Origin: a plasmid
Length of the DNA stretch: 64,000 bases
Sequence record: NZ_CP025192.1
Reading direction: 5' to 3' (one strand)
Shown here: in pieces, positions 38,852-60,380 of the stretch
Numbering within the stretch: position 1 is the stretch's first letter
Layout of the letters: each line of letters begins with the position of its first letter
Program-made: the position numbers and the translations under genes
Notes under the pieces: generated by a model
Told to the model about the DNA's origin: nothing
What the model saw: only the letters and a program-made list of their open reading frames with translations
Database searches by the model: none

Positions 38852-38960
38852 GACAAGGGTTCGTCGCTGCGCTCCCGCGCCGGGGCAGGCCCCGGCCGCG
38901 CCCTTGTCCCGCCTCCGCCTCGCGGTCGCCGGGTGGAATCCAGGCGAAGGATTCCGGGCG
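38852..38960 (+). repeat. Leader repeat copy 1 (GCAAGGGTTCGTCG...GCGCCCTTGTCC), upstream of the DUF3991/Toprim gene
   Basis: Member of an 8-copy family that ends in an RBS + start codon. Confidence 0.6.
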
Positions 38961-39914
38961 ATGAGTGGGCATGACGAGGAACTGCAGCGGCTGCGCGAGG
39001 GGGTGAACTGTGCAGCCCTGCTTGAACGGTTGACGCCCCCATGGCGGCTGGACAAGGCCGCCAGCACACGGGACTGCCTCAAGTACCGCCGGGGCAAGGG
39101 CGAGATCATCATCGTCAACCATGGCGGCCACGGCTGGTGGGACGCCGGGGGCACCGCCAAGGGCGACGTGTTCGGGCTGGTGCAGCACCTGAACCCCGGA
39201 CTGAGCTTCGGCCATGTCCGCAAGCTGCTGCGGGAGATGATCGGGCTCCAGCCCAGCTTTCCCGAGCACCCTCGGACGGTCAGGGCCGCCGGCGACGGCA
39301 TCCCAGCAGCGGATCGCTGGACCGCGGCCCGTCCTCTCCGCCCGGGCGGCAGGGCCTGGCGCTACCTGACGGAAGCCCGCCGGCTGCCGGGCCCGATCCT
39401 GCGGGCCGCCGTAGCGTCCGATGCGATCCGGGAGGGCGCCTATGGCACGGCCTGGTTCGCTCACCGCGACGAGTTGGGCGCCCTGACCGGCTTCGAGATG
39501 CGGGGCGCGGATTTCCGTGGCTTCGCCAAGGGGGCGGACAAGACCCTGTTCCGGCTGCCCGGTTGGATCCCGTCGCAGCCACGGCGCCCGAGCCGGCTGG
39601 CCGTGGCCGAGGCGCCGATCGACGCCCTCAGCCTCGCGGCCATCGAACGGTTGCGGGGCGACACCCTCTACGTGGCGACGTCCGGAGGCATGGGCCCCGG
39701 AACGGTACGCGGTCTCGCCCTCCTGCTGGCGGACCTGGCCACCTTCCCGGATGCCCTGCTGGCCAGCGCGACCGACAACGATCCGGCTGGCGATCGCTAT
39801 GCCGCCATGCTGGCCGAGCAGGCCGCGGCGGTCGGCGTGCGCTGCGAACGGCTGGCGCCGCCCGCGCCACTGAACGACTGGAACGACGCGCTGACACAGG
39901 GGAGGGGGGCATGA
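38961..39914 (+). CDS. DUF3991 + Toprim domain protein (conjugative-element primase-like)
   Basis: Toprim DxD motif ATDNDPAGD. The N-terminal region is DUF3991-like. ATG at 38961 follows GAAGGA; the ORF extends upstream through the repeat. Confidence 0.7.
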   Translation: MSGHDEELQRLREGVNCAALLERLTPPWRLDKAASTRDCLKYRRGKGEIIIVNHGGHGWWDAGGTAKGDVFGLVQHLNPGLSFGHVRKLLREMIGLQPSFPEHPRTVRAAGDGIPAADRWTAARPLRPGGRAWRYLTEARRLPGPILRAAVASDAIREGAYGTAWFAHRDELGALTGFEMRGADFRGFAKGADKTLFRLPGWIPSQPRRPSRLAVAEAPIDALSLAAIERLRGDTLYVATSGGMGPGTVRGLALLLADLATFPDALLASATDNDPAGDRYAAMLAEQAAAVGVRCERLAPPAPLNDWNDALTQGRGA

Positions 39915-40249
39915 CCGCCTTCACGGAAACCCCGACGACACCTCTCAGCCAGGACGCGGTGGATCTTGCGCGAGCACTGCGCGCTGCCTTCCAGCGCATG
40001 CCCGAGCGCCGGCGACAACGCTGCACGGTCCCGCCCACCGGCGACGCCGGCATCGACCGCCCCGTGCTGGTCGAGGCCTTCGACGGCTCGGACCACTACG
40101 CGGGGGTGATCGTCAGGGGAGAGCGTGACGACGCCGGCGCCTGGCTTCTGGACGAGGCCTTCACTCTGCTCACCCTCGACCACGGTGACGGCGCCGACGC
40201 CGCGCTGGTGGCGTGCAACGGATGGAACTGCCATGTCGAGCGCCTCTGA
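39911..40249 (+). CDS. Hypothetical protein (112 aa)
   Basis: ATGA overlap with the upstream stop. Overlaps the downstream helicase start by 17 nt. Confidence 0.4.
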   Translation: MTAFTETPTTPLSQDAVDLARALRAAFQRMPERRRQRCTVPPTGDAGIDRPVLVEAFDGSDHYAGVIVRGERDDAGAWLLDEAFTLLTLDHGDGADAALVACNGWNCHVERL

Positions 40250-42275
40250 TCTCGCCGTGCAGGGCCGGCCGATCGCCGGTCTGACGCGCACCCAGGCCGA
40301 GGCGGCTTCGCTGACCGGAGCGGTGCTGGTGCTGGCCGGTGCCGGGACCGGCAAGACCAGCACCCTCACCGCCGGCGTCGCGCTGCGCATCGCCGAGCGT
40401 GGCATCCCGGCCGCCCGGATCCTGGCCGTGACCTTCACCAACAAGGCTGCCGGCGAGATGCGGGCGCGCATCGTCGCGCTGCTCGGGGGACAGTCCGCGC
40501 CGTCCTGGATCGGCACCTTCCACGGGCTCGGTGCCCGGCAGCTCCGGCTGGAGCCGGAGATGGCCGGTCTGCGGGCGGATTTCGATGTGCTCGATGCCGA
40601 CGATGCCAGGCGACTGCTCAGGCGCGTCATGAAGGCGTCCGGGACGGAGGCGGGCGAGGACGAGATCATCGGCAAGGACCCCGTCAAGGCGATCGCCGGC
40701 CATATCGGGCGCTTCAAGGAGAACATGGTCACGCCCGCCCAGGCGGCGGTCCGGGTCGAGGCCATGCTGGCCGCCAGTCCGCTGGCCGATGCCTCTGGGC
40801 TGCGCGCCGCAGCGCGCCTCTACCCGGAGTATCAGCGCCGGCTGCGAGACGCCAATGCCGCCGACTTCGGGGACCTCCTGCTCTGGCCCGCCGTGGCGAT
40901 GGCAGCCGACGAGGAGCGCCGCCGCCGCCTTGCCGGCCGCTTCTCCTGCCTGCTCGCCGACGAGTACCAGGACGTGAATGCCGTGCAGTACCGCTGGCTT
41001 CGGCTGATGGCGCAGGACCACGGTGAGATCTTCGCGGTGGGCGACGACGATCAGGCGGTGTTCGGCTGGCGAGGCGCCGATATCGAGTACATCCGGCGCT
41101 TCACGCGGGACTTCCACGGCTCTGCCGTGGTCAAGCTGGAGGAGAACTTCCGCTCCACCGGGCATATCCTCGCCGCGGCCAATGCGGTGATCGCGCGCGA
41201 CGACACTCGGCTCGGCAAGACGCTCCGACCCACGCGCGAGCAGGGCCAGCCGATCGAGGTGGTGAGGTTCCGCAACGACGAGGCCGAGGCCACCGGCCTC
41301 GCCTCGGAGATCCGCAGCCGCCACGCAGAAGGCGTACAATGGCAGGACATGGCCATCCTCTACCGCGCCAACCACCTCTCGCGCGGAATCGAAGACGAGT
41401 TGCTGCGGGCCAAGGTGCCCTACGTCCTCGTCGGCGACGTCGCCTTCTACCAGCGTGCCGAGATCAAGGATGCCCTCGCGCTGCTGCGCCTCGCCAACTC
41501 GCCAGACGACTGCCAGTCCGACGAGGCCTTCCGCCGTGCCTGCAACAACCCGCCCCGTGGCATCGGTCCGAAAGCCCTCGACCTGCTGGAGCGCGACGCG
41601 GAGTGGCGTGGATCGTCCCTGCTGGCGGCGTGCCACACCGCCGACTTGCCGCCCCGGGTCCGGGGCACGGCGGGAACCTTCGCCGATGCCATTCGAGGCG
41701 TCGCGGCCGATTCCACGGCCTCGGTCGCCGACCGGCTCTCCCAGCTGCTCGACCGCACCGGCTATCGCCAGTGGCTCCGCGACAGCAGGGCCGAGACGGT
41801 CGAAGGGAGGCTGGAGAACCTCGCGGAGCTGGTGCAGCTGGCCAGTGGTTTCCATTCCGCGACCGATCTGCTGGAGCATGCCGCCCTGGCCAGCGCAGCT
41901 CCCGGCGAGGAGACCGAAGGGCGGGTGCAACTCCTCACCCTCCACCGGGCCAAGGGCCTGGAGTTCGGGCACGTCTTCCTGCCTGCCTGGAACGACACGA
42001 TCTTTCCGAGCCAGTACGGTGATGCTGCCGAGGAACGGCGCCTGGCCTATGTGGCCCTGACCCGGGGCAAGGAGCGGGTGGCCGTCAGCTACGCCGAGTT
42101 CCGGCGCGGCTACGTCGATCCCTCGCCGTTCCTCGACGACATCCCGGCCGACAACCGCCACGAGGGCTGGCTGCGGCCCGTGGCGCGGCGGCCAGCGCGG
42201 ATCTCGCCCCGTCAGGCCGGTATGGACGCCCTCAACGAGATGGTCGCCGGCCTTCGGTCCCGGCCGACGGCATAG
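40233..42275 (+). CDS. UvrD/Rep-family superfamily 1 DNA helicase
   Basis: Walker A GAGTGKTSTL. UvrD motifs (TFTNKAAGEM; LLADEYQDVN; VGDDDQAVFGWRGA; LTLHRAKGLEF). ATG at 40233. Confidence 0.8.
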   Translation: MSSASDLAVQGRPIAGLTRTQAEAASLTGAVLVLAGAGTGKTSTLTAGVALRIAERGIPAARILAVTFTNKAAGEMRARIVALLGGQSAPSWIGTFHGLGARQLRLEPEMAGLRADFDVLDADDARRLLRRVMKASGTEAGEDEIIGKDPVKAIAGHIGRFKENMVTPAQAAVRVEAMLAASPLADASGLRAAARLYPEYQRRLRDANAADFGDLLLWPAVAMAADEERRRRLAGRFSCLLADEYQDVNAVQYRWLRLMAQDHGEIFAVGDDDQAVFGWRGADIEYIRRFTRDFHGSAVVKLEENFRSTGHILAAANAVIARDDTRLGKTLRPTREQGQPIEVVRFRNDEAEATGLASEIRSRHAEGVQWQDMAILYRANHLSRGIEDELLRAKVPYVLVGDVAFYQRAEIKDALALLRLANSPDDCQSDEAFRRACNNPPRGIGPKALDLLERDAEWRGSSLLAACHTADLPPRVRGTAGTFADAIRGVAADSTASVADRLSQLLDRTGYRQWLRDSRAETVEGRLENLAELVQLASGFHSATDLLEHAALASAAPGEETEGRVQLLTLHRAKGLEFGHVFLPAWNDTIFPSQYGDAAEERRLAYVALTRGKERVAVSYAEFRRGYVDPSPFLDDIPADNRHEGWLRPVARRPARISPRQAGMDALNEMVAGLRSRPTA

Positions 42276-42314
42276 CAGGCCGCTGCTCGATCACATCCCC
42301 ACAGGAAACCAGCG

Positions 42315-43160: not shown

Positions 43161-43189
43161 GGAGCGTCGAAGGAAAGGGAGGTGGAGTG

Positions 43190-43337
43190 GCAGGAGGCCC
43201 TGCCACCCTCGCCCGGTGCGCAGCAAGGGTTCGTCGGCTGGTGCCTCCCGCCGCTGCGCGGCGCCCTTGTCTCGCCCCGGATCGGGGCGGCTGCGGGGAG
43301 GGGTCTTCAAGAAGAAGACCAGCAGGAGATTCCACCC
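43190..43337 (+). repeat. Leader repeat copy 2
   Basis: GCAGCAAGGGTTCGTCGGCTGGTGCCTCCCGCCGCTGCGCGGCGCCCTTGTCTCGCCCCGG...AAGAAGAAGACCAGCAGGAGATTCCACCC followed by GTG. Confidence 0.6.
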
Positions 43338-45095: not shown

Positions 45096-45132
45096 GGAGG
45101 ACGGGGAAGGGCGAATGAGCAGGACGGGGGAG

Positions 45133-45275
45133 GGCGCTGCCACCCTCTCCCGGCGCGCGGCAAGGGTTCGTCGGCTCACGCCTCCCGCCGCTCCGCGGCG
45201 CCCTTGCCCCACCCCGGCAGGGGCGGCCGGCGGGCTGGGTCTTCGGGAAGAAGACTCAGCAGAAGGATGAGATCC
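45133..45275 (+). repeat. Leader repeat copy 3
   Basis: Near-identical to copy 2. Ends in AGAAGGATGAGATCC followed by ATG. Confidence 0.6.
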
Positions 45276-45449
45276 ATGGATCTCCACGAACGGCTCGCCA
45301 GGCGCCAGGGACGTCACGAGGACATGAAGGCCATCGCCGGCCTCGCCCTGATCGTCTGCATCCTCCTTGCAGGCGCCATGCTGCCTGGCTTCCTGGCAGA
45401 TCACGCCTCCACTGTCCGTGTGCCTGCCCAGCAGGAGGCCCGCCGATGA
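45276..45449 (+). CDS. Small single-TM membrane protein (57 aa)
   Basis: AGAAGGA RBS. Hydrophobic AIAGLALIVCILLAGAMLPGFL. ATGA-coupled to the next ORF. Confidence 0.4.
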   Translation: MDLHERLARRQGRHEDMKAIAGLALIVCILLAGAMLPGFLADHASTVRVPAQQEARR

Positions 45450-45793: not shown

Positions 45794-45867
45794 GACGCCC
45801 TGCCTGCCTGAGGGAGCAACACGTCCATCCGGTTGCCCGATCCATCACGATCCACAGGATCCGAGAC

Positions 45868-46458: not shown

Positions 46459-46461
46459 GCC

Positions 46462-47244: not shown

Positions 47245-47329
47245 GGGGGCGGCCGCCGACGGTCCGATGAAGGGAAGAGTCGAGAAAGAGGTGTGAACCG
47301 GATACCGCGGAACGGGGCGGGAGGGGTGC

Positions 47330-47446
47330 CGCACCCCGTCCTCCGCCGCAAGGGCAAGGGCCTGGCGGCCCGCCGCGATGCGGCGCCCCTGCCCCGGAGG
47401 AACGGCGCCGCGGCGGCCTGGGAGTTGTTCGGAAAGGAACATCCCC
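47330..47446 (+). repeat. Leader repeat copy 8 (degenerate)
   Basis: CGCAAGGGCAAGGGCCTGGCGGCCCGCCGCGATGCGGCGCCCCTGCCCCGG...GAAAGGAACATCCCC followed by ATG. Confidence 0.45.
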
Positions 47447-47782
47447 ATGGAAATCCGCCGCCTCGCTCCCCGGGCACCCGCCGCGCTCTCCCGATCGCTT
47501 CCACTGGCCGATGCCGGCGAGGCGCTCGCCTGCACCCGCTGCGGCAGTGCCTACCAGGGCGACCCCACCCTGCTGGTGGCCTGCCCGGTGTGCTTCGTCG
47601 CGCCGGGCGTTCCCTGCTGCAAGCCCGATCATGGCCGGGTCCGGCAGTCGCACCTCTCCCGAAGCCGCGATGCCCTGGCGGCAGGGCGCATGCCGGCCTG
47701 CGGCGCCCTGACCTGGGACGGGCTGCACGCCTTCGCGGTGCCGGTGCCGGCCGCGCCTCGACACGTCTCCAGCTCGATCTGA
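47447..47782 (+). CDS. Small zinc-ribbon protein (CxxC...CxxC)
   Basis: CTRCGSAY...CPVCFVAPGVPCC. Strong RBS AAAGGAA. Confidence 0.45.
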   Translation: MEIRRLAPRAPAALSRSLPLADAGEALACTRCGSAYQGDPTLLVACPVCFVAPGVPCCKPDHGRVRQSHLSRSRDALAAGRMPACGALTWDGLHAFAVPVPAAPRHVSSSI

Positions 47783-47792
47783 GGGCGATCCG

Positions 47793-48128
47793 ATGACCCA
47801 TGTTCGCCGCTTCCTCGACCTGTCCACCGCCCACCTCGCGCTGGAGGACCGCACCTGCCTGATCGGCGCGGCCCAGGCCGGGGTGCGCGGCGAGGTGTGC
47901 TGCGGCGCGATGCCCTATGGCTGGTTCGTCTACGCCCATGACGAGCGCCCGGACATCGCCGATACGCTCTGGGCCCTCATGGTCGAAGCCCGCCGACAGG
48001 GTTGCGAGTACCTGCTGTTCGACGCCGACGGCCCGGCCCTCCCGGATTTCCCTTGCTTCGACTGGGATGAGCCTTCGGCATCGCCCTTCGTCGCCGAGGT
48101 GGCGCGACGCCCGGACGGATCACCCTGA
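47793..48128 (+). CDS. Hypothetical protein (111 aa)
   Basis: ORF with protein-like composition. Confidence 0.5.
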   Translation: MTHVRRFLDLSTAHLALEDRTCLIGAAQAGVRGEVCCGAMPYGWFVYAHDERPDIADTLWALMVEARRQGCEYLLFDADGPALPDFPCFDWDEPSASPFVAEVARRPDGSP

Positions 48129-48254
48129 GAATCCGGACCGAACGTCCGAGCGCCGGACATCGAGTACATCTGGAGATCAGGAAAGCGGGCAACCACGAAA
48201 TCGGGAAAGTAGGAGATCAGGAGAGCGGGAGAGGAGAGGCCGTTCCGCACCGGT

Positions 48255-48365
48255 CCGGCCGCCGCAAGGGTTCGTCGCTGCGCTCCCGCGCTCCGCGCGC
48301 CCTTGCCCCGGCCCGCCCGGATGCGGGGCTGGGGAGGTGTTCCGAGAAGATGAAAGGGAACACCG
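48255..48365 (+). repeat. Leader repeat copy 4
   Basis: CCGCAAGGGTTCGTCGCTGCGCTCCCGCGCTCCGCGCGCCCTTGCCCCGG...GAAAGGGAACACCG followed by ATG. Confidence 0.6.
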
Positions 48366-49331
48366 ATGGCTCAGCCTCGCCGTCAGACCGCCGATCGCCC
48401 GGCTCCCCGCGACCATTACGCCGAGATCACCAGCCAGATCGTGGAGGCCCTGGAGGCCGGCACGGTGCCGTGGCGCCGGCCCTGGGACCAGGACAAGGCC
48501 GGTGCCGGTCCGCTGTCGCCCCGCAACGGGGTCACCGGGCGCCGCTACCACGGGATCAATGTGCTGCTGCTGGGCATGACCGGCCTGGCCTTCGCCGGCA
48601 CGGATCCCCGCTGGCTCACCTACAGGCAGGCCGAGGAGAAGGGGTGGCAGGTCCGCCGCGGCGAGCGCGGCAGCCGCGTCTTCTTCTTCCGCAAGCTGAC
48701 CCTGCGGGACGGCGACGCCGCACCCGAGGCGGGAGGCGAGGGCACCCGCACCGTGCCGGTGCTTCGTGCGTACACGGTGTTCCACGCGAGCCAGGTGGAG
48801 GGCATCCCGAGCTTCGAGGCCCCGTCCACCGAGAAGGCCTCCTGGCGCACGCCCGAGGCGGCCGAGACGATCATGCGCAACAGCGGCGTGGCGTTCCGGG
48901 AAGGAGGCGACCGCGCCTACTACTGGCCGGCGACGGACCACATCCAGATGCCGCCGCGCGCGGCCTTCGCCACGCCGGAGGGCTACTGCGCCACGGGCCT
49001 GCACGAGCTGGCTCACGCCTCCGGCGCGAAGCACCGCCTCGACCGTGACCTGACGGGTCGCTTCGGCAGCCACGCCTATGCCCAGGAGGAGCTCCGTGCC
49101 GAGCTGACATCCTGCTTCGTCGGCGCCGAGCTGGGCCTGCCCTGCGACATCCCGAACCACGCCAGCTACGTCTCATCGTGGCTCAGGACGCTTCGGCAGG
49201 ACAAGCGCGAGATCTTCCGCGCCGCGGCCGAGGCCCAGCGCATGGCCGACTACCTGCTCGGCTTCCATCCCGGGCACGCCCGACGGGCGGCCGAGGAGGC
49301 GCGGCGCGACGAGGCCGCGGAGGCGGCGTGA
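48366..49331 (+). CDS. ardC: ArdC-family antirestriction protein (DUF1738 ssDNA-binding + zincin-like metalloprotease domain)
   Basis: ITSQIVEALEAGTVPWRRPW N-terminal signature. HELAHA metalloprotease motif. Confidence 0.85.
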   Translation: MAQPRRQTADRPAPRDHYAEITSQIVEALEAGTVPWRRPWDQDKAGAGPLSPRNGVTGRRYHGINVLLLGMTGLAFAGTDPRWLTYRQAEEKGWQVRRGERGSRVFFFRKLTLRDGDAAPEAGGEGTRTVPVLRAYTVFHASQVEGIPSFEAPSTEKASWRTPEAAETIMRNSGVAFREGGDRAYYWPATDHIQMPPRAAFATPEGYCATGLHELAHASGAKHRLDRDLTGRFGSHAYAQEELRAELTSCFVGAELGLPCDIPNHASYVSSWLRTLRQDKREIFRAAAEAQRMADYLLGFHPGHARRAAEEARRDEAAEAA

Positions 49332-51575: not shown

Positions 51576-51718
51576 ATGGGCGCTGCCACCGCGCTCCGGG
51601 GCGCGGCAAGGGTGCGTCGGCTACCGCCTCCCGCCGCTGCGCGGCGCCCTTGCCCCGCCCCGGACCGGGCGGCCGGCTCGGAAGTGTCTTGAGAGACAGG
51701 ATACGAGGAGAGCAGGGC
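51576..51718 (+). repeat. Leader repeat copy 5
   Basis: GCGGCAAGGGTGCGTCGGCTACCGCCTCCCGCCGCTGCGCGGCGCCCTTGCCCCGCCCCGG...GATACGAGGAGAGCAGGGC followed by ATG. Confidence 0.6.
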
Positions 51719-51985
51719 ATGAGGCAGCGATACAGGGTCTGGCTGGAGGGGCTGGACGAGCGCAGCCGGGCGCTGGTGCGCCTCGGCGGTGCCTGGTCCC
51801 AGCGCCACTGGGCCAACACCGGCTTCTTCGACGTTCCCGGCCAGGTGATGCGGGATCTGGTCGCGGCAGGCTACGCCGAGAGCCGCAAGCCATCCCCGAA
51901 TTGCCCCACCGAGTACCGTGGGCTGCCGCCGGCGGTGTTCGCCGCGCAGCCGATCAAGCGGACCAGCCCCGCCTTCGGCACCTGA
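51719..51985 (+). CDS. Hypothetical protein (88 aa)
   Basis: ATG with GAGGAGAG upstream. The ORF listing extends into the repeat. Confidence 0.45.
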   Translation: MRQRYRVWLEGLDERSRALVRLGGAWSQRHWANTGFFDVPGQVMRDLVAAGYAESRKPSPNCPTEYRGLPPAVFAAQPIKRTSPAFGT

Positions 51986-52116
51986 GCCGCTGACGGGCGC
52001 CTGAGCGCCCGGACCGCGGACCCTACGAACCCCCACCACGCAGAACGCCGCCGCGCCAACCCGGTCGCCCCTTCGGGCCACCGGGCGCTCGCGCGTGCGC
52101 GCACGGAGCCGATCCC

Positions 52117-55100: not shown

Positions 55101-57198
55101 GGCCCTGTTGAGCCGGCTCGACGGTGAGGACCGCATCGCCCGCAAGCGCATCGAGCGCATGAAGGAGGGCATGCAGGAGAAGCTGGAAGGCCTGTCCAGC
55201 ACCAAGGACGACATGCTGACCATCGCCGAGATGGGCGTGGACCAGCTGATCGCCGACGAGGCGCAGGAGTTCCGCAAGCTGTCCTTCGCCACCAACATGG
55301 GCGGCCTCAAGGGCATCGCCCCGGACGGCTCGCAGCGGGCCTGGGACCTGTTCGTGAAGTCGCGCTTCGTGGCGACCGTCAATCCTGGCCGGGCGCTGGT
55401 GCTGGCCTCGGGCACGCCCATCACCAACACCCTGGGCGAGATGTTCACCCTGCAGCGCTTCATGCAGCCGGAGATGCTGGAGGAGCGTGGCATCCAGGAG
55501 TTCGACGCCTGGGCGTCCAATTTCGGCGATACCCGCACCGAGCTGGAACTGCAGCCCTCCGGCCTCTACAAGCCGGTGACGCGCTTCTCCGAGTTCGTCA
55601 ACGTGGCCGACCTGATCGCCATGTTCCGCTCCGTCGCGGACGTGGTGCTGAAGGACGACCTGCGGCAGTACCTGCGGCTGCCCGCGATCACGGGCGGCAA
55701 GCGCCAGATCGTCACCGCCCCCGCCAGCCCGGCCTTCAAGGCCTACCAACGCCACCTGGCCGAGCGCATCAAGGCGATCGAGGCGCGAAAGGGTAAGCCC
55801 GAGAAGGGCCAGGACATCCTGCTCTCCGTCATTACCGACGGCCGGCACGCCGCGATCGACCTGCGCTTCGTGGTGCCCGAGCAGGACAACGAGCCGCAGA
55901 ACAAGCTCAACCTGCTGATCGGGAACGCCTTCCGCATCTGGCAGGAGACCCGGGACCGGCGCTACCGCAGGCCGGACGGCACGCCGCACCCGGTGCCGGG
56001 CGCCGCGCAGATGATCTTCTCGGACCTGGGCACCGAGGGGGCGCTCGCCACGCGGGGCTTCTCGGCCTATCGCTGGATCCGCGAGCGCCTGATCGCCCTC
56101 GGCGTGCCGGCCGAGCGCATTGCCTTCATGCAGGACTACAAGAAGGCGGAAGCCAAGCAGTCGCTGTTCAACGCCCTGAACAACGGCCAGATGGACTTCG
56201 TGCTGGGCTCCTCGGCCACCATGGGGACCGGCGTGAACGCCCAGCGCCGGCTCGCCGCTCTGCACCACCTCGACGTGCCCTGGCTACCGTCCGAGATCGA
56301 GCAGCGCGAGGGCCGCATCGAGCGGCAGGGCAACCAGAACGAGGAGATCGGTCTCTACGCCTACGCCACCCTGGGCTCCATGGATGCCCAGATGTGGCAG
56401 AACAACGAGCGCAAGGCGCGCTTCATCGCGGCGGCGCTGGGCGGGGACCGCTCGATCCGCCGGCTGGAGGACCTCGGCAGCCAGGCCAACCAGTTCGCCA
56501 TGGCCAAGGCCATCGCGTCGGGCGACCCGCGGCTGATGCAGAAGGCCGGGCTGGAGGCCGAGCTTGCCCGGCTGGAACGACAGCACGCCGCGCATTTCGA
56601 CGACCAGCACGCCGTCCGGCGGCGCATCGCGGAGGCCCGCTCGGCGGTCGGCCGGGCGACCCAGGCGATCACCGACACCGAGGCCGACCTGGCGCGGCGG
56701 GTGTCCACCCGGGGCGAGGCGTTCCACATGGAGGTGGAGGACAGGACCTTCACCGAGCGCAAGCCGGCTGGCGCCGCGCTGCTGAAGTTCATCCGGACCG
56801 TGCAGTTCGAGGGCCGCAAGGGCGATTGGGACCTCGGGACCATCGGCGGCTTCCCGCTGAAGCTGGAGGCACGTCGCTACCAGCAAGGCGCCAAGCTGGA
56901 AGTCCACCTCCTGCTCGCGCGCACCGGCGGGGAGCAGGAAATCCAGATCGAGGACGACCTCACCGCCATGGGGCTGGTCTCGCGCCTGGAATACGACCTC
57001 GGGCGCTTCGAGGCGGAACTGGCCGAGCACCGGCGCCGTCTGGCTGAAGCCAAGCGGCAACTGCCGGCCTACGAGGCACGGCTCGCAGCAGGCTTCGAGT
57101 TCGCGGACGAGCTGGAGGCCAAGCGGGCCGAGATGAAGCGGCTGGAAGAGGACCTGGCTCAGACAGGGAAGGAGGAAGAACTGCCCGCCGCAGCTTGA
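52117..57198 (+). CDS. Large N6-adenine DNA methyltransferase + SNF2/DEAD-like helicase fusion protein (conjugative-element Sno-like methylase-helicase)
   Basis: Methyltransferase motifs EPGCGTGQF and AIGNPPFSD. Helicase motifs AHAVGAGKT and LIADEAQEF. 1693 aa. The antisense 1465-aa ORF is spurious. Confidence 0.85.
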   Translation: MAKAAPSSQLSLFDTTALSSPFSLFGDGGGGLLPAAGGEDDEEESASAPLAPAIPRVVARDFRLTTERGLAAGWKARAADNLAAIRLMQRIEGETRPATAEEQAILARFVGYGAGDLANTLFRRPGEDWRDGWAEQGDGLEQAVSASEHASLSRCTQYAHFTPEYIVRAVWAGLGRMGFRRGAILEPGCGTGQFLALRPDGIEDCSAVTGIEMDPVTARIAALLYPKAWIRNEDFCRAKLVENYDLAIGNPPFSDRTVRAEDPAGRLGLKLHDYFIARAVERLRPGGLAAFVTSHGTLDKVDPKAREHIAGMADLVGAIRLPAGSFAAAAGTDVVVDILFLQRRERGAAPNGVEWVHLAEVVPATDGEAAIHANAWFATHPEMVLGRHGWTSGPFGLAYDCARDGRDLDAALAEAIARLPEGIHQPPATAAAPVRAAKPTVQVGTAAEGATIKEGSYLLGQGGTLLQVVDGRAEEVAVKSGKGTVGLFAKHARIIRGLIPVRDAVREVIRAQEADEPFGAAQVRLRAAYGSFVRAFGPINLTTVSTSTDEATGEVRESVRRPNLQPFLDDPDSWLVSSIEEYDLETGTASRGPIFTDRVIHAPAEPVIVSAADALAVTLAERGTVDLDHIAELLGRDRATVLAELGETVFLDPGLTTGGFEAWQTADEYLSGHVRRKLAAARAAAVLDERYARNVVALERVQPEDLRPSDITARLGAPWIPASDVASFIEEVMGVRTVVRHTVEVAHWSIEVHRFAGEASATSEWGTHRRHAGELLDDALNAAIPQIWDVWRDENGEHRQLNAKETEAAKDKLARIKGAFERWVWTDGDRAERLVRVYNDAFNSLMPRHFSGEHLQLPGASTAIQLRAHQKRVVWRIIASGQTYIAHAVGAGKTFTIAAAIMEQKRLGLISKAMLTVPGHCLAQASREFLQLYPGARILVADETNFSKDKRGRFLARAATANWDCIIITHSAFKFIASPAEFERGLVQAQLDAYSALLSRLDGEDRIARKRIERMKEGMQEKLEGLSSTKDDMLTIAEMGVDQLIADEAQEFRKLSFATNMGGLKGIAPDGSQRAWDLFVKSRFVATVNPGRALVLASGTPITNTLGEMFTLQRFMQPEMLEERGIQEFDAWASNFGDTRTELELQPSGLYKPVTRFSEFVNVADLIAMFRSVADVVLKDDLRQYLRLPAITGGKRQIVTAPASPAFKAYQRHLAERIKAIEARKGKPEKGQDILLSVITDGRHAAIDLRFVVPEQDNEPQNKLNLLIGNAFRIWQETRDRRYRRPDGTPHPVPGAAQMIFSDLGTEGALATRGFSAYRWIRERLIALGVPAERIAFMQDYKKAEAKQSLFNALNNGQMDFVLGSSATMGTGVNAQRRLAALHHLDVPWLPSEIEQREGRIERQGNQNEEIGLYAYATLGSMDAQMWQNNERKARFIAAALGGDRSIRRLEDLGSQANQFAMAKAIASGDPRLMQKAGLEAELARLERQHAAHFDDQHAVRRRIAEARSAVGRATQAITDTEADLARRVSTRGEAFHMEVEDRTFTERKPAGAALLKFIRTVQFEGRKGDWDLGTIGGFPLKLEARRYQQGAKLEVHLLLARTGGEQEIQIEDDLTAMGLVSRLEYDLGRFEAELAEHRRRLAEAKRQLPAYEARLAAGFEFADELEAKRAEMKRLEEDLAQTGKEEELPAAA

Positions 57199-57486
57199 CG
57201 TCCAACCAGGACAGAGCGGAGGGCATACGAGGATGGCGGCGATCGGTAAGCCGAGAAGGGGCGGGAGAGAGAGCGGTCGCACCCGGCCGCGCCCCGTCAC
57301 CGCTGCGCTCCACGGCCGCCTGCGCAGCCCTGCCCCGCTTGGCCGCACCCCGCTGCGCGGGCCGCGTCCCGCGCCGGGGCAGGGCCGCTCGCCCGCCGTG
57401 GTGCCGGCGCCCGCCCGGGCGCCGTCGGGGAGGGGTCAGCCCAGGGATAGGGCGGACAGGAACCCCTCGGAGCGAGCCCGACCCCC

Positions 57487-59253
57487 ATGAAGCTGATCGA
57501 GACCGACCCCAAGAAGCTGCGCAACAACCCGGCCAATCCCCGCCTGACCCCGGCTGGACCTGACGCCGACGCTGTGCTGCTGGCCAACATCAAATCCGTC
57601 GGCATCCTGCAGCCGCCGACCGCTCGCGAGGTCGAAGGCGAGCTCGTGCTGATCGCCGGCCATCGCCGCCGCGACGCCGCCATCAAGGCCGGCCTCCGGA
57701 GCATCCACGTCCTGGTGCGCGAGGACGGTGACGAGGCCGGCGCCGACCAGGTGCGGGCCCTGGCCGAGAACACGGTGCGGGCGGGCATGAACCCGGTCGA
57801 CCAGTGGCGCAAGATTGAGGCCCTGGTCAGCGAGGACTGGACCGAGGAGGCCATCGCCAGCGCCCTGAACCTCACCGTCCGGCGGGTCCGGATGCTCCGG
57901 CACATGAGCCACATCCTGCCCGCCATGCTGACCCAGATGGCCCGCGGCGACATGCCGAACGAGCAGCAGCTGCGCACCATCGGCCTCGCCACGGCGGAGG
58001 AGCAGGCGGCGGTCTGGAAGTCGAACAGGCCCAAGCGGAACGAGCGGGCCAGCTGGCACATGATCGCCCACGGCCTCGACCGGCGCCGGATCCCGTTCAC
58101 CCGGGCGAAGTTCGGGCCGGCCGAGGCCGAGGCCTTCGGCATCGTCTGGCACGATGACCTGTTCGCACCCGGCGACACCGATCCCCGCTACACCACGCAG
58201 ACCGACGCATTCATCCAGGCGCAACAGGCCTGGCTGGAGAACAACCTCCCCGAGGGCGGTGTCCTGCTGGGGCTCGACGAGTACGAGCGGCCGGTGCTGC
58301 CGAAGGGCGCGCAGTCGCTCTACTACCGCCAGCCCGGGCCGGACGACACGGTGGGCTACTATGTCGACCGGCGTTCCTGCGAGGTCGAGACCTCGATCTT
58401 CCGGATGCCCGTGCGGACCGAGCCCCGCTCCTCAGGCGCCCGCAACGATACGACCGGCGCCACGATGCCCAAGGCGGCCCGCCCCGATCTGACGCAGAAG
58501 GGCGAGACCATGGTGGGCGACCTGCGGACCGAGGCGCTGCACACTGCCTTCGCCGAGGCTGAGATCCCCGACGACACGCTGATCGGCCTGCTCGTCCTGG
58601 CCCTGGCGGGGCGGAACGTCAGCGTACGTTCCGGCGCGAGGGGCGACGACCTCTACGCCGGGCACCGCGCGGAACTGGCCGCCTCCATCACCGAGGGCGG
58701 CGTCATCACCAGCGATCCGGCCGCGCTGCGCGCCGCCGCCCGTGGGATGCTCCGTCAGGCGCTGTCCTGCCGGGTCGGCTTTTCGTCCTCGGGGATGGTC
58801 GGGCGCATCGCGGGCTTGGCCGTGGAGGCCGACAGCTACCTGCCGACCACGGCGACGGAGGAATTCCTTGCCAACCTGAGCAAGGCGGCCATCGAACGCA
58901 CCGCCAGCGCCAACAATGTCCTGCCCCGGCAAACCGGCAAGGCCACACGCGCGGCGATCGTGGAACAGATGAAGAACCGGATCTTCCTGCACCCGCTGGT
59001 ACGCTTCGGGTTCACCGACGAGGAGCGCCGCAAGGCCGCCGCGGACCGGACGCGCGCCGCGGAGCTGGCCGCCTTCCGCAAAGGGGGCTGCGGCACCGAG
59101 GACGCGAGCATCGAGGGCGAGGAGATCCCGGAGGAGGACGAGGAGGCGGAGCCGTCGCAGCCGGACGAGGGTGAGGACGAGACGGAGGGGGACGGGAACG
59201 GCGCCCCGCCACCCCCAGGCCAGGGCAGCGCCCCCGTCGCGCACGCGCCCTGA
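57487..59253 (+). CDS. ParB-like nuclease domain protein (ParB/Srx N-terminus) with an acidic C-terminal tail
   Basis: LIAGHRRRDAAIKAGL ParB box. Poly-Glu/Asp tail. Confidence 0.8.
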   Translation: MKLIETDPKKLRNNPANPRLTPAGPDADAVLLANIKSVGILQPPTAREVEGELVLIAGHRRRDAAIKAGLRSIHVLVREDGDEAGADQVRALAENTVRAGMNPVDQWRKIEALVSEDWTEEAIASALNLTVRRVRMLRHMSHILPAMLTQMARGDMPNEQQLRTIGLATAEEQAAVWKSNRPKRNERASWHMIAHGLDRRRIPFTRAKFGPAEAEAFGIVWHDDLFAPGDTDPRYTTQTDAFIQAQQAWLENNLPEGGVLLGLDEYERPVLPKGAQSLYYRQPGPDDTVGYYVDRRSCEVETSIFRMPVRTEPRSSGARNDTTGATMPKAARPDLTQKGETMVGDLRTEALHTAFAEAEIPDDTLIGLLVLALAGRNVSVRSGARGDDLYAGHRAELAASITEGGVITSDPAALRAAARGMLRQALSCRVGFSSSGMVGRIAGLAVEADSYLPTTATEEFLANLSKAAIERTASANNVLPRQTGKATRAAIVEQMKNRIFLHPLVRFGFTDEERRKAAADRTRAAELAAFRKGGCGTEDASIEGEEIPEEDEEAEPSQPDEGEDETEGDGNGAPPPPGQGSAPVAHAP

Positions 59254-59317
59254 GCCTCCTGGACCCGGCCATCCGGCCGGGTCCCTCCCCGCCAACGTCA
59301 CCCACGAGGCAAGCCCC

Positions 59318-59608
59318 ATGGCCTTCATCGACGTCGCCGCGCGCGGCTCGGCCAGCGAACCGTTCCAGCTCGCCGGTAAGAATCCGATCCTGCACACGCC
59401 CGGCCTGCGGGACGATCACGACCGCCTGTTCGAGTATGCGGACGGCCATCTGGGCTTCTACGGCTTCCTGCGCGTGGCCCATGCCCGCATCGCCAGGAGG
59501 ATCATGGTCGGGCTGATGGATCTGCCCGACCGCCTGTGGCGCGACGCCTATGACGATGGCGCCCACCCGGCCGAGGAGGCCGATGCCGCCCTGGAGGATG
59601 ACGAGTAA
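59318..59608 (+). CDS. Hypothetical protein (96 aa)
   Basis: ATG 59318. The ORF listing starts at 59171. Confidence 0.45.
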   Translation: MAFIDVAARGSASEPFQLAGKNPILHTPGLRDDHDRLFEYADGHLGFYGFLRVAHARIARRIMVGLMDLPDRLWRDAYDDGAHPAEEADAALEDDE

Positions 59609-59689
59609 ACCGCATTATCGCTCTATCCGGAGGGGTAGGCCGGTCCACGAAGCGAGAGGGCCAGGAGAGCGCGGTGGCGTGCGCGTTTC

Positions 59690-59789
59690 CCTGGGCACAA
59701 GGGTCCGTCGCTCCGCTCCCTCACTCCGTTCGCCCTTGTCACCCGGGAAACGGCACGCCCTGTCCGGAGGTGGTTGAGGAGAACCGGAC
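59690..59789 (+). repeat. Leader repeat copy 6
   Basis: CACAAGGGTCCGTCGCTCCGCTCCCTCACTCCGTTCGCCCTTGTCACCCGG...GAGGAGAACCGGAC followed by ATG. Confidence 0.5.
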
Positions 59790-59984
59790 ATGGAAATGGA
59801 TCAACGCACCGAGAAGCTCTGGAAGGCCTGCGAGGAACAAGTGGCCTTGCTGGAGGAGGCACTCTATTCGGCCAACCCGCGCGACTACGACGACGCATGC
59901 GAGAAACTCGACGAAATGCTGTTTGATCTCGAGGAGATGTCCACGGCCGTGAGAGCGCATTTCGCCACCCTGCACCAACAGTAA
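59790..59984 (+). CDS. Small acidic hypothetical protein (64 aa)
   Basis: RBS GAGGAGAA. Composition is protein-like. Confidence 0.4.
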   Translation: MEMDQRTEKLWKACEEQVALLEEALYSANPRDYDDACEKLDEMLFDLEEMSTAVRAHFATLHQQ

Positions 59985-60224
59985 GCAGGAACGGCGTGCC
60001 GGCGCGAATGCATTTCCCGTTCGCGCCACATCTTTCGACAATGACGGCGTCGGCCAGTCCCCCGGCTGGCCCCGTCGGATCGAAGGAACTCTCCATGCCC
60101 TCCATCAGAGACATCTTGCGCCCCAGCCGCTCCACCTGGATCGCCTGACACCGCCGCCGGCCCGGGTGAACAGGGGTGAGGGGAGAAGGCGGGTGGAGGC
60201 GGGCGAAGAAGCCCTGCCGCGCCC

Positions 60225-60380
60225 GCCCCCCGGCGGCAAGGGGCTGTCGCTGCGCTCCCTCGCTCCGCTCGCCCTTGCCCCCGGCGGCCTGGACCGCGCC
60301 CACGGGGGAGGGGTCGGGGGCGAAAGACCAGAAGGCGAAAGCCCGTCCGCGACGAACCGCGACAATCCGGAGTTGATCCC
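60225..60380 (+). repeat. Leader repeat copy 7
   Basis: GGCAAGGGGCTGTCGCTGCGCTCCCTCGCTCCGCTCGCCCTTGCCCCCGG...CCGGAGTTGATCCC followed by ATG. Confidence 0.5.

Follow-up and report, generated by a model that had tools for sequence, protein, structure and literature searches.

The window analysed here, a 64,000-nucleotide stretch of a Roseomonas plasmid (NZ_CP025192.1), carries a leading-region-type gene module in the order imuB/dnaE2 – Toprim – UvrD – ... – ArdC – methylases – ParB_N – ... – ssb, whose first operon encodes the Toprim and UvrD proteins. Copies of a structured repeat precede eight of the plasmid's anti-defence or establishment operons (Table 1), upstream of genes for a DUF3991-Toprim protein, a GHKL ATPase, a 57-aa ORF, a Zn-ribbon ORF, ArdC and ORFs of 88, 64 and 229 aa; the 88-aa ORF is followed by a 1693-aa methylase-helicase gene. 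The initial annotation had located all eight copies and named the downstream genes as we find them, and its proposal of a non-coding structured cis element common to at least eight operons of such a module is supported. It had called the copy near 47330 degenerate; this copy (copy 4) instead represents a conserved third subtype, with P2 as GGGCC/GGCCC and orthologues in four other plasmids.

A covariance model (CM) of the core, applied without filters to the full window, returned exactly these eight matches, all on the plus strand, at 42.3–66.3 bits, scores that are partly given by construction because all eight copies were in the training set; the lack of further matches in the window is, unlike those scores, no artefact of that set. 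The best non-copy score, 18.5 bits, came from the reverse strand of a true copy, and within the window the CM placed no copy outside the module. In ~0.73 Mb of unrelated GC-rich DNA containing the loose motif there was no match at E < 0.001. All eight copies in the window are intergenic. A search of Rfam returned no family matching the element, even at E ≤ 10, in agreement with the earlier remark that it was not recognised as a described RNA family.

In total, 88 copies were collected across 33 sources, from related plasmids of Acetobacteraceae and Methylocystaceae/Beijerinckiaceae. In the annotated plasmids every copy is carried by the gene-sense strand, ~50–110 nt 5′ of a start codon. P1 precedes this codon at a tight distance (mostly 47–73 nt, with a second mode at 96–109); the distance between the upstream stop codon and the element is broad (37–328), and 32 of 81 copies have no same-strand upstream ORF. 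Copy classes are orthologous together with their genes across genera, and plasmids differ in the ‘element + gene’ units that they have gained or lost.

The GCAAGGG/CCCTTGC stem first reported is present; the simple loop that it was thought to close is not. The stem is the neck (P1, CAAGGG/CCCTTG) of a three-way junction with two variable hairpins, P2 and P3, and this junction caps a much longer, imperfect hairpin of ~100 nt. The full unit, originally given as ~110–140 bp, can be delimited to ~125–135 nt, from a conserved C-T-R-C-C-G-C motif ~20 nt 5′ of the core to a small hairpin (P4) before the RBS. Pairing holds for 96% of core cells, with double changes in 9 of 15 pairs, while slid controls reach 37–58%. 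The extended structure of the Toprim class, assessed on an unfitted MAFFT alignment, is 95.6% paired with compensatory changes in 11 of 27 pairs (slid controls 28–45%), values reached in none of 500 shuffles. P1 is almost invariant despite its base pairing. In P2, P3 and the outer stem, base changes that compensate each other imply selection on intramolecular pairing.

Table 1 Positions of the element copies in the window. A(−11), conserved A of the minus strand, with the plus-strand coordinate opposite it; CM, covariance-model score; minus fold, predicted energy of the minus strand.
Copy	Feature	Position	Strand	Context and details
1	Main hairpin	38826–38932	−	5′ of DUF3991-Toprim (start 38961); CM 55.8 bits; minus-strand DNA fold −41.8 kcal/mol, A(−11) unpaired; outer-stem ends approximate
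1	P1	38854–38859/38901–38906		A(−11) opposite 38831
1	P4	38935–38955	+	GGAATCC-AGGCGAA-GGATTCC, adjoining RBS and start codon; read from sequence; predicted +1 (11 nt past position opposite −11 A) 3 nt inside stem
2	Main hairpin	43196–43303	−	5′ of GHKL ATPase (GTG 43338); CM 65.8 bits; folded
2	P1	43224–43229/43264–43269		A(−11) opposite 43201
2	P4	43302–43320	+	GGTCTTC-AAGAA-GAAGACC
3	Main hairpin	45133–45234	−	5′ of 57-aa ORF (45276–45449); CM 65.7 bits; minus fold −40.4, A(−11) a single-base bulge
3	P1	45161–45166/45201–45206		A(−11) opposite 45138
3	P4	45238–45256	+	GGTCTTC-GGGAA-GAAGACT; closing pair G·U on plus strand
4	Main hairpin	47322–47418	−	5′ of Zn-ribbon ORF (47447–47782); CM 42.3 bits; minus fold −37.9
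4	P1	5′ strand from 47349; 3′ strand to 47391		3′ strand CCCCTG; A(−11) opposite 47327
4	P4	47426–47441	+	TGTTC-GGAAAG-GAACA; SD-like loop
5	Main hairpin	48238–48329	−	5′ of ardC (48366–49331); CM 66.3 bits; minus fold −37.7
5	P1	48265–48270/48300–48305		A(−11) opposite 48243, inside AAC bulge
5	P4	48336–48364	+	GGTGTTCC-(14-nt purine-rich loop)-GGAACACC; ends 1 nt 5′ of ATG
6	Main hairpin	51579–51680	−	5′ of 88-aa ORF (51719–51985); CM 63.4 bits; minus fold −46.4
6	P1	51607–51612/51647–51652		A(−11) opposite 51584
6	P4	51684–51704	+	GTGTCTTG-AGAGA-CAGGATAC; two G·U pairs on plus strand
7	Main hairpin	59670–59760	−	5′ of 64-aa ORF (59790–59984); CM 47.3 bits; minus fold −28.3
7	P1	59698–59703/59733–59738		A(−11) opposite 59675
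7	P4	59762–59789	+	GTCCGG-(16-nt loop with GAGGAG)-CCGGAC; ends at ATG
8	Main hairpin	60210–60300	−	5′ of 229-aa ORF (60381–61070); CM 49.7 bits; folded, outer stem less clear; longer start-codon spacer (103 nt)
8	P1	60237–60242/60272–60277		A(−11) opposite 60215
8	P4-like	60312–60329	+	GGTC-GGGGGCGAAA-GACC; read from sequence; weakest of the eight

Folding models point to the template strand, opposite to the mRNA sense, as the strand to which the folded form belongs. With DNA parameters the minus strand is the more stable in 78 of 81 copies, which are not 78 independent events because the copies are phylogenetically related; with RNA parameters it is so in 59 of 81. Compared with dinucleotide shuffles, its excess is −7.6 kcal/mol, versus −4.8 kcal/mol for the plus strand, and is the larger in 69 of 81 copies. 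RNAalifold favoured it in five of five orthologue classes; in the best-sampled, the Toprim class, the values are −35.6 for minus and −13.6 for plus, with 25 G·U against 5 A·C, while the ArdC and Zn-ribbon classes show a small asymmetry of about 2–4 kcal/mol, with G·U counts that are not decisive. Where mismatches are conserved, the minus strand has tandem G·A/A·G and the plus strand T·C/C·T, which by nearest-neighbour rules argues for the former. The core helices P1–P3 are Watson-Crick on both strands; on the plus strand the core holds 14 A·C versus 6 G·U, and taken alone with RNA parameters it shows a slight plus preference (49 versus 31, not significant). P4 has the opposite asymmetry, its plus strand being the more stable in 66 of 80 copies.

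No oriT was found in the window, and its transferred strand (T-strand) is therefore deduced from relatives. R. mucosa pSKB0092-2 encodes a TrwC relaxase and carries an R388-like IR+nick motif and a gene block in the stb position; since this arrangement is exactly that of R388, the module genes point to oriT and have the T-strand as their template. The nick motif also occurs in two Methylosinus plasmids, in the same relative orientation as in pSKB0092-2, and in these three related plasmids the R388-like oriT nick motif marks the hairpin-forming strand as the transferred one. Two copies in non-T orientation lie in an IS-riddled duplicate fragment of pSKB0092-2. Judged by these relatives, the folding strand is probably the one that enters the new cell first, the same strand and orientation logic as in plasmid F.

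The 3′ arm of the folded strand presents, from tip to base, C-T-T-G, a spacer of 17–18 nt, G(−16)YGG, then Y(−12), which is paired, and A(−11), which is invariant and usually unpaired. These positions are post hoc, having been spotted by inspection and quantified afterwards: the spacer is 17–19 nt in 76 of 76 scorable copies (17 or 18 in 69), and A(−11) is present in 76 of 76, given how the motif was located, with P(unpaired) of 0.76; at −16 to −12 this probability is 0.10–0.25. An A at the −11-equivalent occurs in the minus-strand arm of 72 of 80 copies and in the plus-strand arm of 2 of 80. In the minimum-free-energy fold of copy 2, the −10-like motif sits in a separate small hairpin. 3′ of the hairpin, the folded strand continues into a structure-free polypyrimidine tail, which cannot pair with the template flank because that flank is equally pyrimidine-rich. 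In six window copies, read by hand, the predicted +1 is at most ~3 nt away from the base at which P4 begins. The CTTG-spacer-Y(−12)A(−11) arrangement resembles a fork-junction promoter, and it fits the consensus ttGnnn/nAtnnn reported for Gluconobacter (Acetobacteraceae), in which t is roughly as frequent as c at the first −10 position (PMC5756330), a match of little weight by itself because that consensus is so lax. The ‘−10’ agreement is confined to −12/−11; positions −10 to −7 are G/C-rich and T(−7) is absent. On double-stranded DNA the motif would read as a leftward (antisense) promoter, a point against the ssDNA-promoter reading.

As the fold lies on the strand that probably enters first, the copies are most likely single-stranded-DNA (ssDNA) promoters, most likely of a type not yet described in Alphaproteobacteria; that they form a new class, analogous to Frpo/ssp of F and IncI plasmids, we judge an even call. 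For pESBL and F, a separate ssDNA-promoter hairpin is described at each of six leading-region operons, and the hairpins fall into three unrelated classes (PMC12672017). R388 differs, in that ordinary double-stranded promoters under ArdK repression drive its establishment genes (PMC9723621). Each copy is a stem-loop of the template strand of its operon, the presumed T-strand, and most likely acts there as a promoter only when single-stranded. Host RNA polymerase would recognise a −35 element in and around P1 and take the paired −12/unpaired −11 A as a pre-melted fork junction, start ~11 nt beyond the −11 A, at the first bases of P4, which would thus form the 5′ end of the mRNA, and transcribe the operon while the complementary strand is still absent. 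Once double-stranded, the promoter would be off, because the gene-directed strand has no A at −11. The initial annotation had offered a protein operator or an RNA structure in the 5′ UTR; neither mechanism is supported, and ssDNA lies outside both.

The same hairpins could additionally provide primers for the synthesis of the complementary strand, or delay it, as has been described for Frpo and ssp2 of plasmid F. It is rather unlikely that this, and not transcription, is the main task of the T-strand structure, either as a priming site (ssi) used by the module's DUF3991-Toprim protein or a host primase, with a start on the polypyrimidine tract, or as a roadblock that keeps the island single-stranded until a UvrD helicase resolves the hairpin. 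All the strand and orientation evidence applies equally here, the tract offers a structure-free template in a layout similar to that of RSF1010 ssiA, Toprim and UvrD are encoded in the first operon, and the invariant P1, together with the junction and its G·A mismatches, has the look of a surface recognised by a protein. There is also precedent, in that Frpo RNA serves as a primer for DNA synthesis and conversion is held up at the GC-rich ssp2 until UvrD acts (bioRxiv 10.64898/2026.01.09.698686). Yet such a role needs no fixed 50–70 nt distance to the start codon, no tie to P4 and the RBS and no occurrence once per operon; it leaves the conserved CTTG-17/18-YA spacing and the absence of the A from the other arm unexplained, and no solved or named relative marks the Toprim protein as a primase. 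It is compatible with the promoter role rather than exclusive of it.

A structured 5′-UTR RNA on the gene-sense strand, whether a leader recognised by a protein or small RNA or an element with a stabilising or translational role, with transcription starting further upstream (e.g. in or before the polypurine tract), is unlikely. The location directly 5′ of start codons, the co-conservation with P4 and the RBS, the plus-strand preference of P4 and the strand-neutral core would all suit it, as would the GGA-rich loops near the SD, which resemble binding sites of translational regulators. However, the thermodynamic and mismatch asymmetry points to the template strand and thus disfavours this RNA: the long outer stem is supported on the minus strand only, the core of the plus strand has more A·C than G·U, and the conserved tandem mismatches become U·C/C·U in RNA. 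Only the small RBS-side hairpin prefers the mRNA strand. The lack of any Rfam match and of a convincing plus-strand promoter upstream of the copies also counts against it.

Quite improbable is a double-stranded regulatory module, in which an ordinary promoter with an operator for a plasmid repressor would give zygotic induction through absence of the repressor, as in the CUP repeats of IncN and the ArdK/KorA regulon of IncW and IncP. A conserved repeat before several leading-region operons is just what the CUP and ArdK systems show (PMC6294495, PMC9723621), and the near-invariance of P1 despite pairing suggests sequence-specific recognition. In R388, a 650-bp repeat (95% identical) precedes ardC and orf12 and holds a weak look-alike, CAAGGGTACG...GCTGCGCTCC...GCGCCCTTGCCC (13.7 bits, E 0.18). 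A protein operator is nevertheless unlikely because the half-sites lie 27–60 nt apart, at variable distance, across an interval with compensatory base-pair changes, and strand asymmetry would be meaningless for a duplex. We found no TTGACA-N4-TTGACA operators near the copies, no CM match in the R46 CUP region and no recognisable KorA/ArdK-like gene among the module ORFs scanned.

Very doubtful, too, is a minus-strand RNA, namely a cis-antisense transcript over each RBS, with hairpin and pyrimidine tail as terminator, or a leftward double-stranded promoter. The minus-strand preference does hold with RNA parameters, the post-hairpin tail is T-rich in lower-GC relatives and CTTG-17/18-YA points leftward on duplex DNA, but the Roseomonas tail is C-rich and a poor terminator, a terminator scan at the Roseomonas copies found none, a promoter for such RNAs is not evident inside the genes, transcripts running leftward would enter co-directional genes at their 3′ ends in antisense, and the link to oriT orientation stays unexplained. 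A mobile or recombinational repeat (an integron attC-like single-stranded site or a REP/MITE-type intergenic repeat) is largely refuted and hardly credible: one-strand imperfect hairpins with unpaired bases and variable terminal structure between co-oriented genes, the gain and loss of ‘element + gene’ units and the tyrosine recombinases encoded elsewhere in the window recall one, but RYYYAAC/GTTRRRY core sites are absent, the element is anchored to the downstream gene and not to a cassette 3′ end, its classes are orthologous with their genes, and there is neither an adjacent integron integrase nor a copy outside the module.

Coordinated switching through a shared element was suggested originally, and it is plausible that the element allows coordinated early expression. 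If the ssDNA-promoter reading is true, the element would give transient early expression, in the new host, of ArdC, methylases, ParB-like, Toprim/UvrD and small unknown proteins.

A scan of the whole window recovered all eight copies of the repeat listed in the initial annotation, each at its place. A covariance model (CM) of the 61-position core, run without filters, scored copies 1–8 at 42–66 bits, all on the plus strand, and the next-best score (18.5 bits) belonged to the reverse strand of a true copy. Because these copies trained the CM, the informative part is the absence of other matches: nothing else in the 64 kb resembles them, coding DNA and the other strand included, and ~0.73 Mb of unrelated GC-rich sequence carrying the loose seed motif gave no match at E<0.001. 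Every window copy is intergenic, in agreement with the non-coding character proposed for the element. Its assignment to no described RNA family also stands, as Rfam 15 returned zero matches at the gathering threshold across the whole window and nothing overlapping the copies even at E<=10. Copy 4, which had been called degenerate, is actually a conserved third subtype. The window has a G+C content of 68.7%. Across the whole of 38–64 kb it matches a plasmid of Roseomonas sp. FDAARGOS_362 at ~97% identity, and from 43228 onward it is identical to the Roseomonas mucosa plasmid pTT14-4. In pTT14-4 the module has lost its Toprim-UvrD part to an IS6 element (window 43228 vs CP099475.1 16180–16239), so the window, otherwise 100% identical, represents another replicon or an ancestral form.

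Genes behind the eight copies and positions of other features in the window and in related plasmids
Feature	Replicon	Coordinates	Strand
Defence-type cluster	window	1386–17250	
GmrSD	window	1386–3149	+
PglZ	window	4050–6041	-
SNF2-family helicase	window	6041–8977	-
DUF6079 AAA protein, 1250 aa	window	13498–17250	-
Gene behind copy 1: DUF3991-Toprim, then UvrD	window		
Gene behind copy 2: GHKL ATPase	window		
Gene behind copy 3: 57-aa ORF	window		
Gene behind copy 4: Zn-ribbon ORF, then DUF5983	window		
Gene behind copy 5: ArdC, then PAPS-reductase-like gene and DUF6927	window		
Gene behind copy 6: 88-aa ORF, then 1693-aa methylase-helicase	window		
Gene behind copy 7: 64-aa ORF	window		
Gene behind copy 8: 229-aa ORF, then C5 methylase	window		
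Variable 'element + gene' unit	window	48128–48366	
Variable 'element + gene' unit	Roseomonas plasmid L003	25327–25824	
Variable 'element + gene' unit	Roseomonas plasmid L005	24608–25662	
Region upstream of ParB_N	window	57255–57445	
Direct repeats in C5 cytosine methylase gene (71% identity, 97 nt)	window	62087–62183 / 62432–62528	
Further direct repeats in C5 cytosine methylase gene	window	62337–62376 / 62442–62481	
R388-like IR and nick motif	R. mucosa pSKB0092-2 (L134)	24882–24907	
Inverted copies	R. mucosa pSKB0092-2 (L134)	11763–11834, 17371–17432	
Nick motif	Methylosinus pMSC49b (L126)	34309	-
Nick motif	Methylosinus plasmid L133	6501	+
Long inverted repeat	Methylosinus pMSC49b (L126)	~28550–28850	
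Two ~650-bp repeats	R388 (L138)	12406–13099, 16336–17069	

The element is ~100 nt long (-30 to -46 kcal/mol), with a polypurine tract upstream. The GCAAGGG/CCCTTGC stem, originally read as closing a loop, is instead the neck (P1, CAAGGG/CCCTTG) of a three-way junction. Along the sense strand the order is P1, a linker NNCGTC, a variable hairpin P2, TCCC, a second variable hairpin P3, and P1 again. P2 ranges from GC-NNN-GC up to GGGCGGC-TGGC-GCCGCCC, and P3 occurs as CGCCGC/GCGGCG, CGCGC/GCGCG, GTCC/GGAC, GCCTGC/GCAGGC, GTGC/GCAC or GGGC/GCCC. Over 80 distinct copies, in an alignment fitted to the CM, 96% of core cells are paired, against 37–58% in slid controls, and both-sided changes occur in 9 of the 15 core pairs. 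Around P1, imperfect pairing continues for another 20–25 positions, as far as a conserved motif ~20 nt upstream, C-T-R-C-C-G-C, and the G-C-G-G-Y with which it pairs, ~15 nt downstream. For the best-sampled class of orthologues (22 sequences in a plain MAFFT alignment), pairing over the extended structure amounts to 95.6% (slid controls 28–45%), and 11 of its 27 pairs are compensatory; 0 of 500 shuffles did as well.

Relatives were found by BLAST of one copy and by a genome-wide pattern scan, followed by the CM filter; the pattern scan was too loose, most of its 120 loci being chance matches that were filtered out. The covariation-supported family comprises at least 88 members and was seen in two groups only: Acetobacteraceae (plasmids and some large contigs of Roseomonas, Acidocella, Acidiphilium, Rhodopila, Gluconacetobacter, Komagataeibacter, Kozakia and Lichenicola) and Methylocystaceae/Beijerinckiaceae (Methylosinus, Methylocystis, Methylocella, Methylocapsa and Rhodoblastus). 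The suggestion that copies always sit 5' of a gene was borne out in ten annotated plasmid stretches, where every match lies on the sense strand of the next gene and none overlies an annotated feature. P1 keeps a narrow distance to the start codon (mostly 47–73 nt, with a second cluster at 96–109), its distance from the preceding stop codon is broad (37–328 nt), 32 of 81 copies have no same-strand ORF upstream, and each copy class keeps its own gene across genera. The narrow start distance, the broad stop distance and the class–gene linkage indicate that the element belongs to the operon 5' end; it is neither a terminator nor a mobile repeat. Units of element plus gene vary between otherwise collinear plasmids: L003, L005 and a further locus (L130) have a DUF4326 unit headed by a copy of the element, and the window lacks this unit. 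Homologous recombination may use the repeats as joints and in this way reshuffle the establishment genes.

Both strands of each copy were folded with 26-nt flanks. The complement, that is the minus or template strand, folded better in 78 of 81 copies under DNA parameters (by 4.8 kcal/mol on average, of which base composition accounts for ~2 kcal/mol) and in 59 of 81 under RNA parameters; as the copies are related, these counts are not independent trials. The excess over dinucleotide shuffles was -7.6 kcal/mol for the complement vs -4.8 kcal/mol for the sense strand, and was larger for the complement in 69 of 81. Consensus folding favoured the complement in all five orthologue classes (complement/sense energies -35.6/-13.6, -45.7/-36.8, -35.0/-33.1, -41.7/-33.3 and -71.9/-67.7), the difference being only 2–4 kcal/mol in two of them. 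The conserved P2 mismatches (GTCG opposite CTCC) give tandem T·C/C·T on the sense strand and tandem G·A/A·G on the complement, as does the common P3 variant CTCGC...GCTCG; in nearest-neighbour terms, tandem G·A/A·G is a stable and often conserved motif. Core cells on the sense strand hold 14 A·C vs 6 G·T, and A·C becomes G·T on the complement. The first orthologue class has 25 G·U against 5 A·C, and wobble counts in the smaller classes are not decisive. The preference is reversed in the segment containing P4, a small hairpin just before the RBS, and the RBS itself, where the sense strand is the more stable in 66 of 80 copies. The earlier proposal of a shared regulatory leader was thus right in spirit and wrong as to molecule and strand, since the complement folds better. 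A sense-strand RNA is possible, with the P4–RBS segment folding better in that sense and the remainder on the complement. An antisense RNA is possible too, with the complement ahead under RNA parameters, in fewer copies than under DNA parameters.

The window has no relaxase or oriT, and its first 38 kb carry replication, partition, integrase and defence-type genes. In R388, the nicked-strand oligonucleotide maps between the trwABC and stbABC blocks. There trwABC lies on the strand opposite the nicked strand, and stbABC, followed by ssb, ardC and others, is also opposite to the nicked strand and points back toward oriT; the F plasmid follows the same polarity logic. R. mucosa pSKB0092-2 carries the window's module, the leading-region-type gene island behind the copies, with eight copies, and a TrwC-type relaxase gene (Pfam 2e-40) on the strand of the module genes. 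Beside TrwC, an AT-richer intergenic region contains an R388-like IR and nick, GCACC-ATT-GGTGCAATGGTGT|ATGG (general form GCACC-N3-GGTGCAATGGTGT|AT); past this motif lie six genes in the stb position and then the module, ssb end first. An R388-like oriT-proximal architecture is present in this plasmid. Two Methylosinus plasmids have the nick motif as well, 'downstream' of the module genes and on the opposite strand, and among the 17 loci searched it occurs elsewhere solely at the true R388 oriT. In these three related plasmids, judged by the IR and nick motif and the TrwC operon orientation, the module genes use the T-strand, the strand transferred in conjugation, as template and point toward oriT, so that the better-folding strand is the predicted T-strand in all three. 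The gene content downstream of the copies (ArdC, methylases, ParB_N and Toprim/UvrD, with ssb in relatives) is of the leading-region kind. In these relatives the module is a leading region with imuB/dnaE2 as its distal bound, and anti-defence islands with such a distal bound have been described (PMC11541004).

Two findings are contrary to this polarity. Two inverted copies in an IS-riddled duplicate fragment of pSKB0092-2 have a non-T orientation, and a MobA/MobL gene adjoins ssb in two Methylosinus plasmids, which would imply the opposite polarity if its product were the acting relaxase; in the analogous RSF1010, the nicked strand runs into mobC and mobA enters last. The inverted copies precede a second Toprim gene and a truncated methylase within an IS21/IS5-riddled fragment on the far side of the relaxase, probably a decayed module duplicate. 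A search for an RSF1010-like nick core near the Methylosinus MobA/MobL gene gave only a non-conserved chance match. The MobA/MobL-based polarity was dropped because the R388-like motif in the same plasmids fits the module orientation, and MobA/MobL is thus probably not the relevant relaxase there. The Kozakia plasmid beyond ssb is cargo and uninformative on polarity. MOB-suite types the nick-motif plasmids of Roseomonas and Methylosinus as 'mobilizable', with MOBP or MOBQ relaxases. L003–L005, Roseomonas plasmids typed 'non-mobilizable', carry the leading-region module, with no nick motif in the stretches searched; typing may have misjudged how mobile these replicons are.

From junction to base, the 3' arm of the folding strand reads C-T-T-G, which ends P1, a spacer, G(-16)-Y-G(-14)-G(-13)-Y(-12)-A(-11), and a pyrimidine tract. 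Measured from the TTGnnn hexamer, the spacer is 17 nt in 24, 18 nt in 45 and 19 nt in 7 of the 76 copies with a locatable motif, and A(-11) is present in all 76. Past it lie ~3 weakly paired positions and then a tract of at least 85% pyrimidine. Ensemble folding pairs positions -16 to -12 (P unpaired 0.10–0.25), leaves A(-11) unpaired (0.76) and keeps the tail open; because the template flank that faces the tail is pyrimidine-rich too, tail and flank cannot zip up. An A equivalent to -11 occurs on the folding-strand arm in 72 of 80 copies and on the sense arm in 2 of 80, and a gene-directed '-35 ... -11A' therefore exists solely in the folded strand. The one promoter survey found for Acetobacteraceae gave ttGnnn / nAtnnn, the first -10 position being t as often as c (PMC5756330). 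Position -12 here (C 44, T 23) fits this Gluconobacter consensus, itself weak and lax, and the element has no TATAAT-like hexamer. A simple match count recovered no canonical -35/-10 boxes even in F Frpo, a proven example. Counting 11 nt from the position opposite the A places the predicted +1 at most ~3 nt from where P4 begins in six copies of the window; the coincidence was read by eye in these six, as automatic detection of the first paired base of P4 was confounded by longer-range pairs. On duplex DNA, CTTG-17/18-YA in all copies resembles a leftward promoter directed at the 3' end of the co-directional gene before it; at the first copy in some plasmids, the leftward motif faces a divergent WGR-domain gene.

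Fork-junction DNA, duplex to -12 with the non-template strand single from -11, is an in vitro substrate of the sigma70 holoenzyme. The geometry predicted here is the same, with pairing from -16 to -12, an open A(-11) and a tail that is rich in pyrimidines and has no complement opposite. The fork-junction probe is artificial, whereas the element's junction would form naturally by the folding of one strand and is a putative binding site. From this geometry we infer that RNA polymerase could bind and start at the site. The element would then be a natural fork-junction promoter that works on the single strand as it enters and falls silent when the duplex forms. One hairpin arm would supply the -35 element and the unpaired -11 adenine to the template arm, and the operon would be transcribable solely before the complementary strand is made. 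P4 would form the 5'-terminal stem-loop of the mRNA, from the predicted +1, which is consistent with its sense-strand preference. The three-way-junction cap with its tandem G·A pairs may have a second function, e.g. polymerase, primase or helicase loading, or a roadblock.

The ssDNA promoters of F and pESBL are the functionally closest known systems. Frpo/ssi (class 1) and ssp2/ssp3 (classes 2 and 3) are ssDNA promoters of IncF and IncI1 plasmids (Masai & Arai 1997; PMC9849209; PMC12672017; bioRxiv 10.64898/2026.01.09.698686). F and pESBL have six leading-region operons, each with a T-strand hairpin, in three unrelated classes and with mapped start sites (PMC12672017), and one GC-rich class stalls complementary-strand synthesis until UvrD acts (bioRxiv 10.64898/2026.01.09.698686). 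Like these, the element is a repeated, non-coding, GC-enriched stem-loop of a leading region, here in the predicted T-strand; each operon has one, ahead of genes for ssb, anti-restriction, methylase and ParB-like functions that face oriT, the island is bounded by error-prone polymerase genes, a putative -35/-10 pair lies within the stem at promoter-like spacing, and there is a link to UvrD. Unlike Frpo (~300 nt, ~-100 kcal/mol), it is three times shorter and less stable (-30 to -46 kcal/mol); unlike Frpo/ssp in general, its cap is a conserved three-way junction containing tandem G·A pairs, and it offers TTG and -12/-11 only, without canonical boxes, resides in Alphaproteobacteria and has a predicted function. 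On the F leading region the CM reached at best 13.7 bits (E 0.14), with no sequence similarity there. So far, ssDNA promoters are known only from enterobacterial plasmids of the F-like and IncI types, where they are recognised by eye or from sequence similarity; our literature search found none described for Alphaproteobacteria. One study reported that those enterobacterial promoters are barely induced in an alphaproteobacterial recipient (PMC12672017).

A duplex operator is possible; for such a double-stranded alternative the models are the CUP repeats of IncN and the R388 promoters under ArdK control. As in CUP (pKM101/R46) and R388, conserved repeats stand ahead of several establishment operons; the oriT-stbABC-(ssb, ard...) architecture is that of IncN/IncW, and ardC and ssb have the same orientation as in R388. 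The CUP/R388 regions are double-stranded promoter/operators of 400–650 bp with TTGACA direct repeats bound by ArdK (PMC6294495, PMC9723621), whereas the conserved features of the element are intramolecular pairs with a strand preference. No ArdK-type TTGACA-N4-TTGACA, allowing up to 2 mismatches, is found in the window at 38–64 kb, and the CM gives no match in R46. R388 has two 95%-identical ~650-bp repeats, upstream of orf12 and ardC, with two identical weak CM matches (13.7 bits, E 0.18) and shared CAAGGGTACG / GCTGCGCTCC / GCGCCCTTGCCC blocks. Each repeat holds a T-strand hairpin and a weak core look-alike, ~380 nt from the ardC start; the look-alike may be a distant relative, a lead and not a finding.

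A priming or roadblock role in the transferred strand is a less likely alternative to the promoter. The element resembles the RSF1010 sites ssiA/ssiB in being an ssDNA hairpin with initiation on the 3' flank and a plasmid Toprim/primase gene nearby. Unlike the element, the ssi sites are 40-nt features of oriV, one on each strand, with no coupling to gene starts, and to our knowledge they share no sequence similarity with it. PDB and NCBIfam searches with the Toprim protein found nothing. A scan of 38–52.5 kb for E. coli-type sigma70 promoters gave one irrelevant match. The readings rejected are sigma54 (by inspection, the GG-N10-GC spacing of the GGCAC/GGCAG motif fits copy 4 only), an integron attC (conserved ends CAAGGG/CCCTTG, not RYYYAAC / GTTRRRY core sites; anchoring to the downstream start, not 3' of a cassette; no intI beside the array) and REP/MITE.

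Other features were noted nearby. The 290 nt upstream of the ParB_N gene (start 57487) have no CAAGGG core and no CM match. This region shares a polypurine lead and a GGGGAGGGGTC motif with the copies, has a different long inverted repeat, CAGCCCTGCCCCG...CGGGGCAGGGCCG, and folds as DNA at -71.4 (minus) vs -65.2 (plus), with a z of only -1.0; it may represent a second hairpin class. The Methylosinus ParB_N gene has a canonical copy. In pMSC49b, a long inverted repeat with an AT core, GGCAGACGCCAATTTTTTT...AAAAAAATTGGCGTCTTGCC, is a candidate hairpin of a different class; it lies immediately 5' of the first small gene next to the MobA/MobL intergenic region. The window's defence-type cluster shares its replicon with the anti-defence module, and the direct repeats within the C5 methylase gene suggest a duplicated domain segment.

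The best-supported conclusion, which we consider probable, is that the element has some function in the transferred single strand. Within that function a promoter is the most likely role, ahead of priming or a roadblock, and we put its chance at about even. More tentative still, at slightly under even, is the proposal of an undescribed class of promoter, active solely on ssDNA through a folded T-strand arm carrying the -35 and the unpaired -11A, and the first outside enterobacterial plasmids. The element is of real interest to the plasmid-establishment field and directly testable, and the possible R388 relative would open it to tests in a standard E. coli system. If the proposal is true, the family of at least 88 members could be the basis of the first search model that finds ssDNA promoters of GC-rich bacteria by their structure, one that would mark leading regions and T-strand polarity in plasmids typed as 'non-mobilisable'. 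About a dozen small unknown genes, one per copy, would become candidate anti-defence or establishment factors, and early expression from the incoming strand would be a general plasmid strategy with independently evolved solutions.
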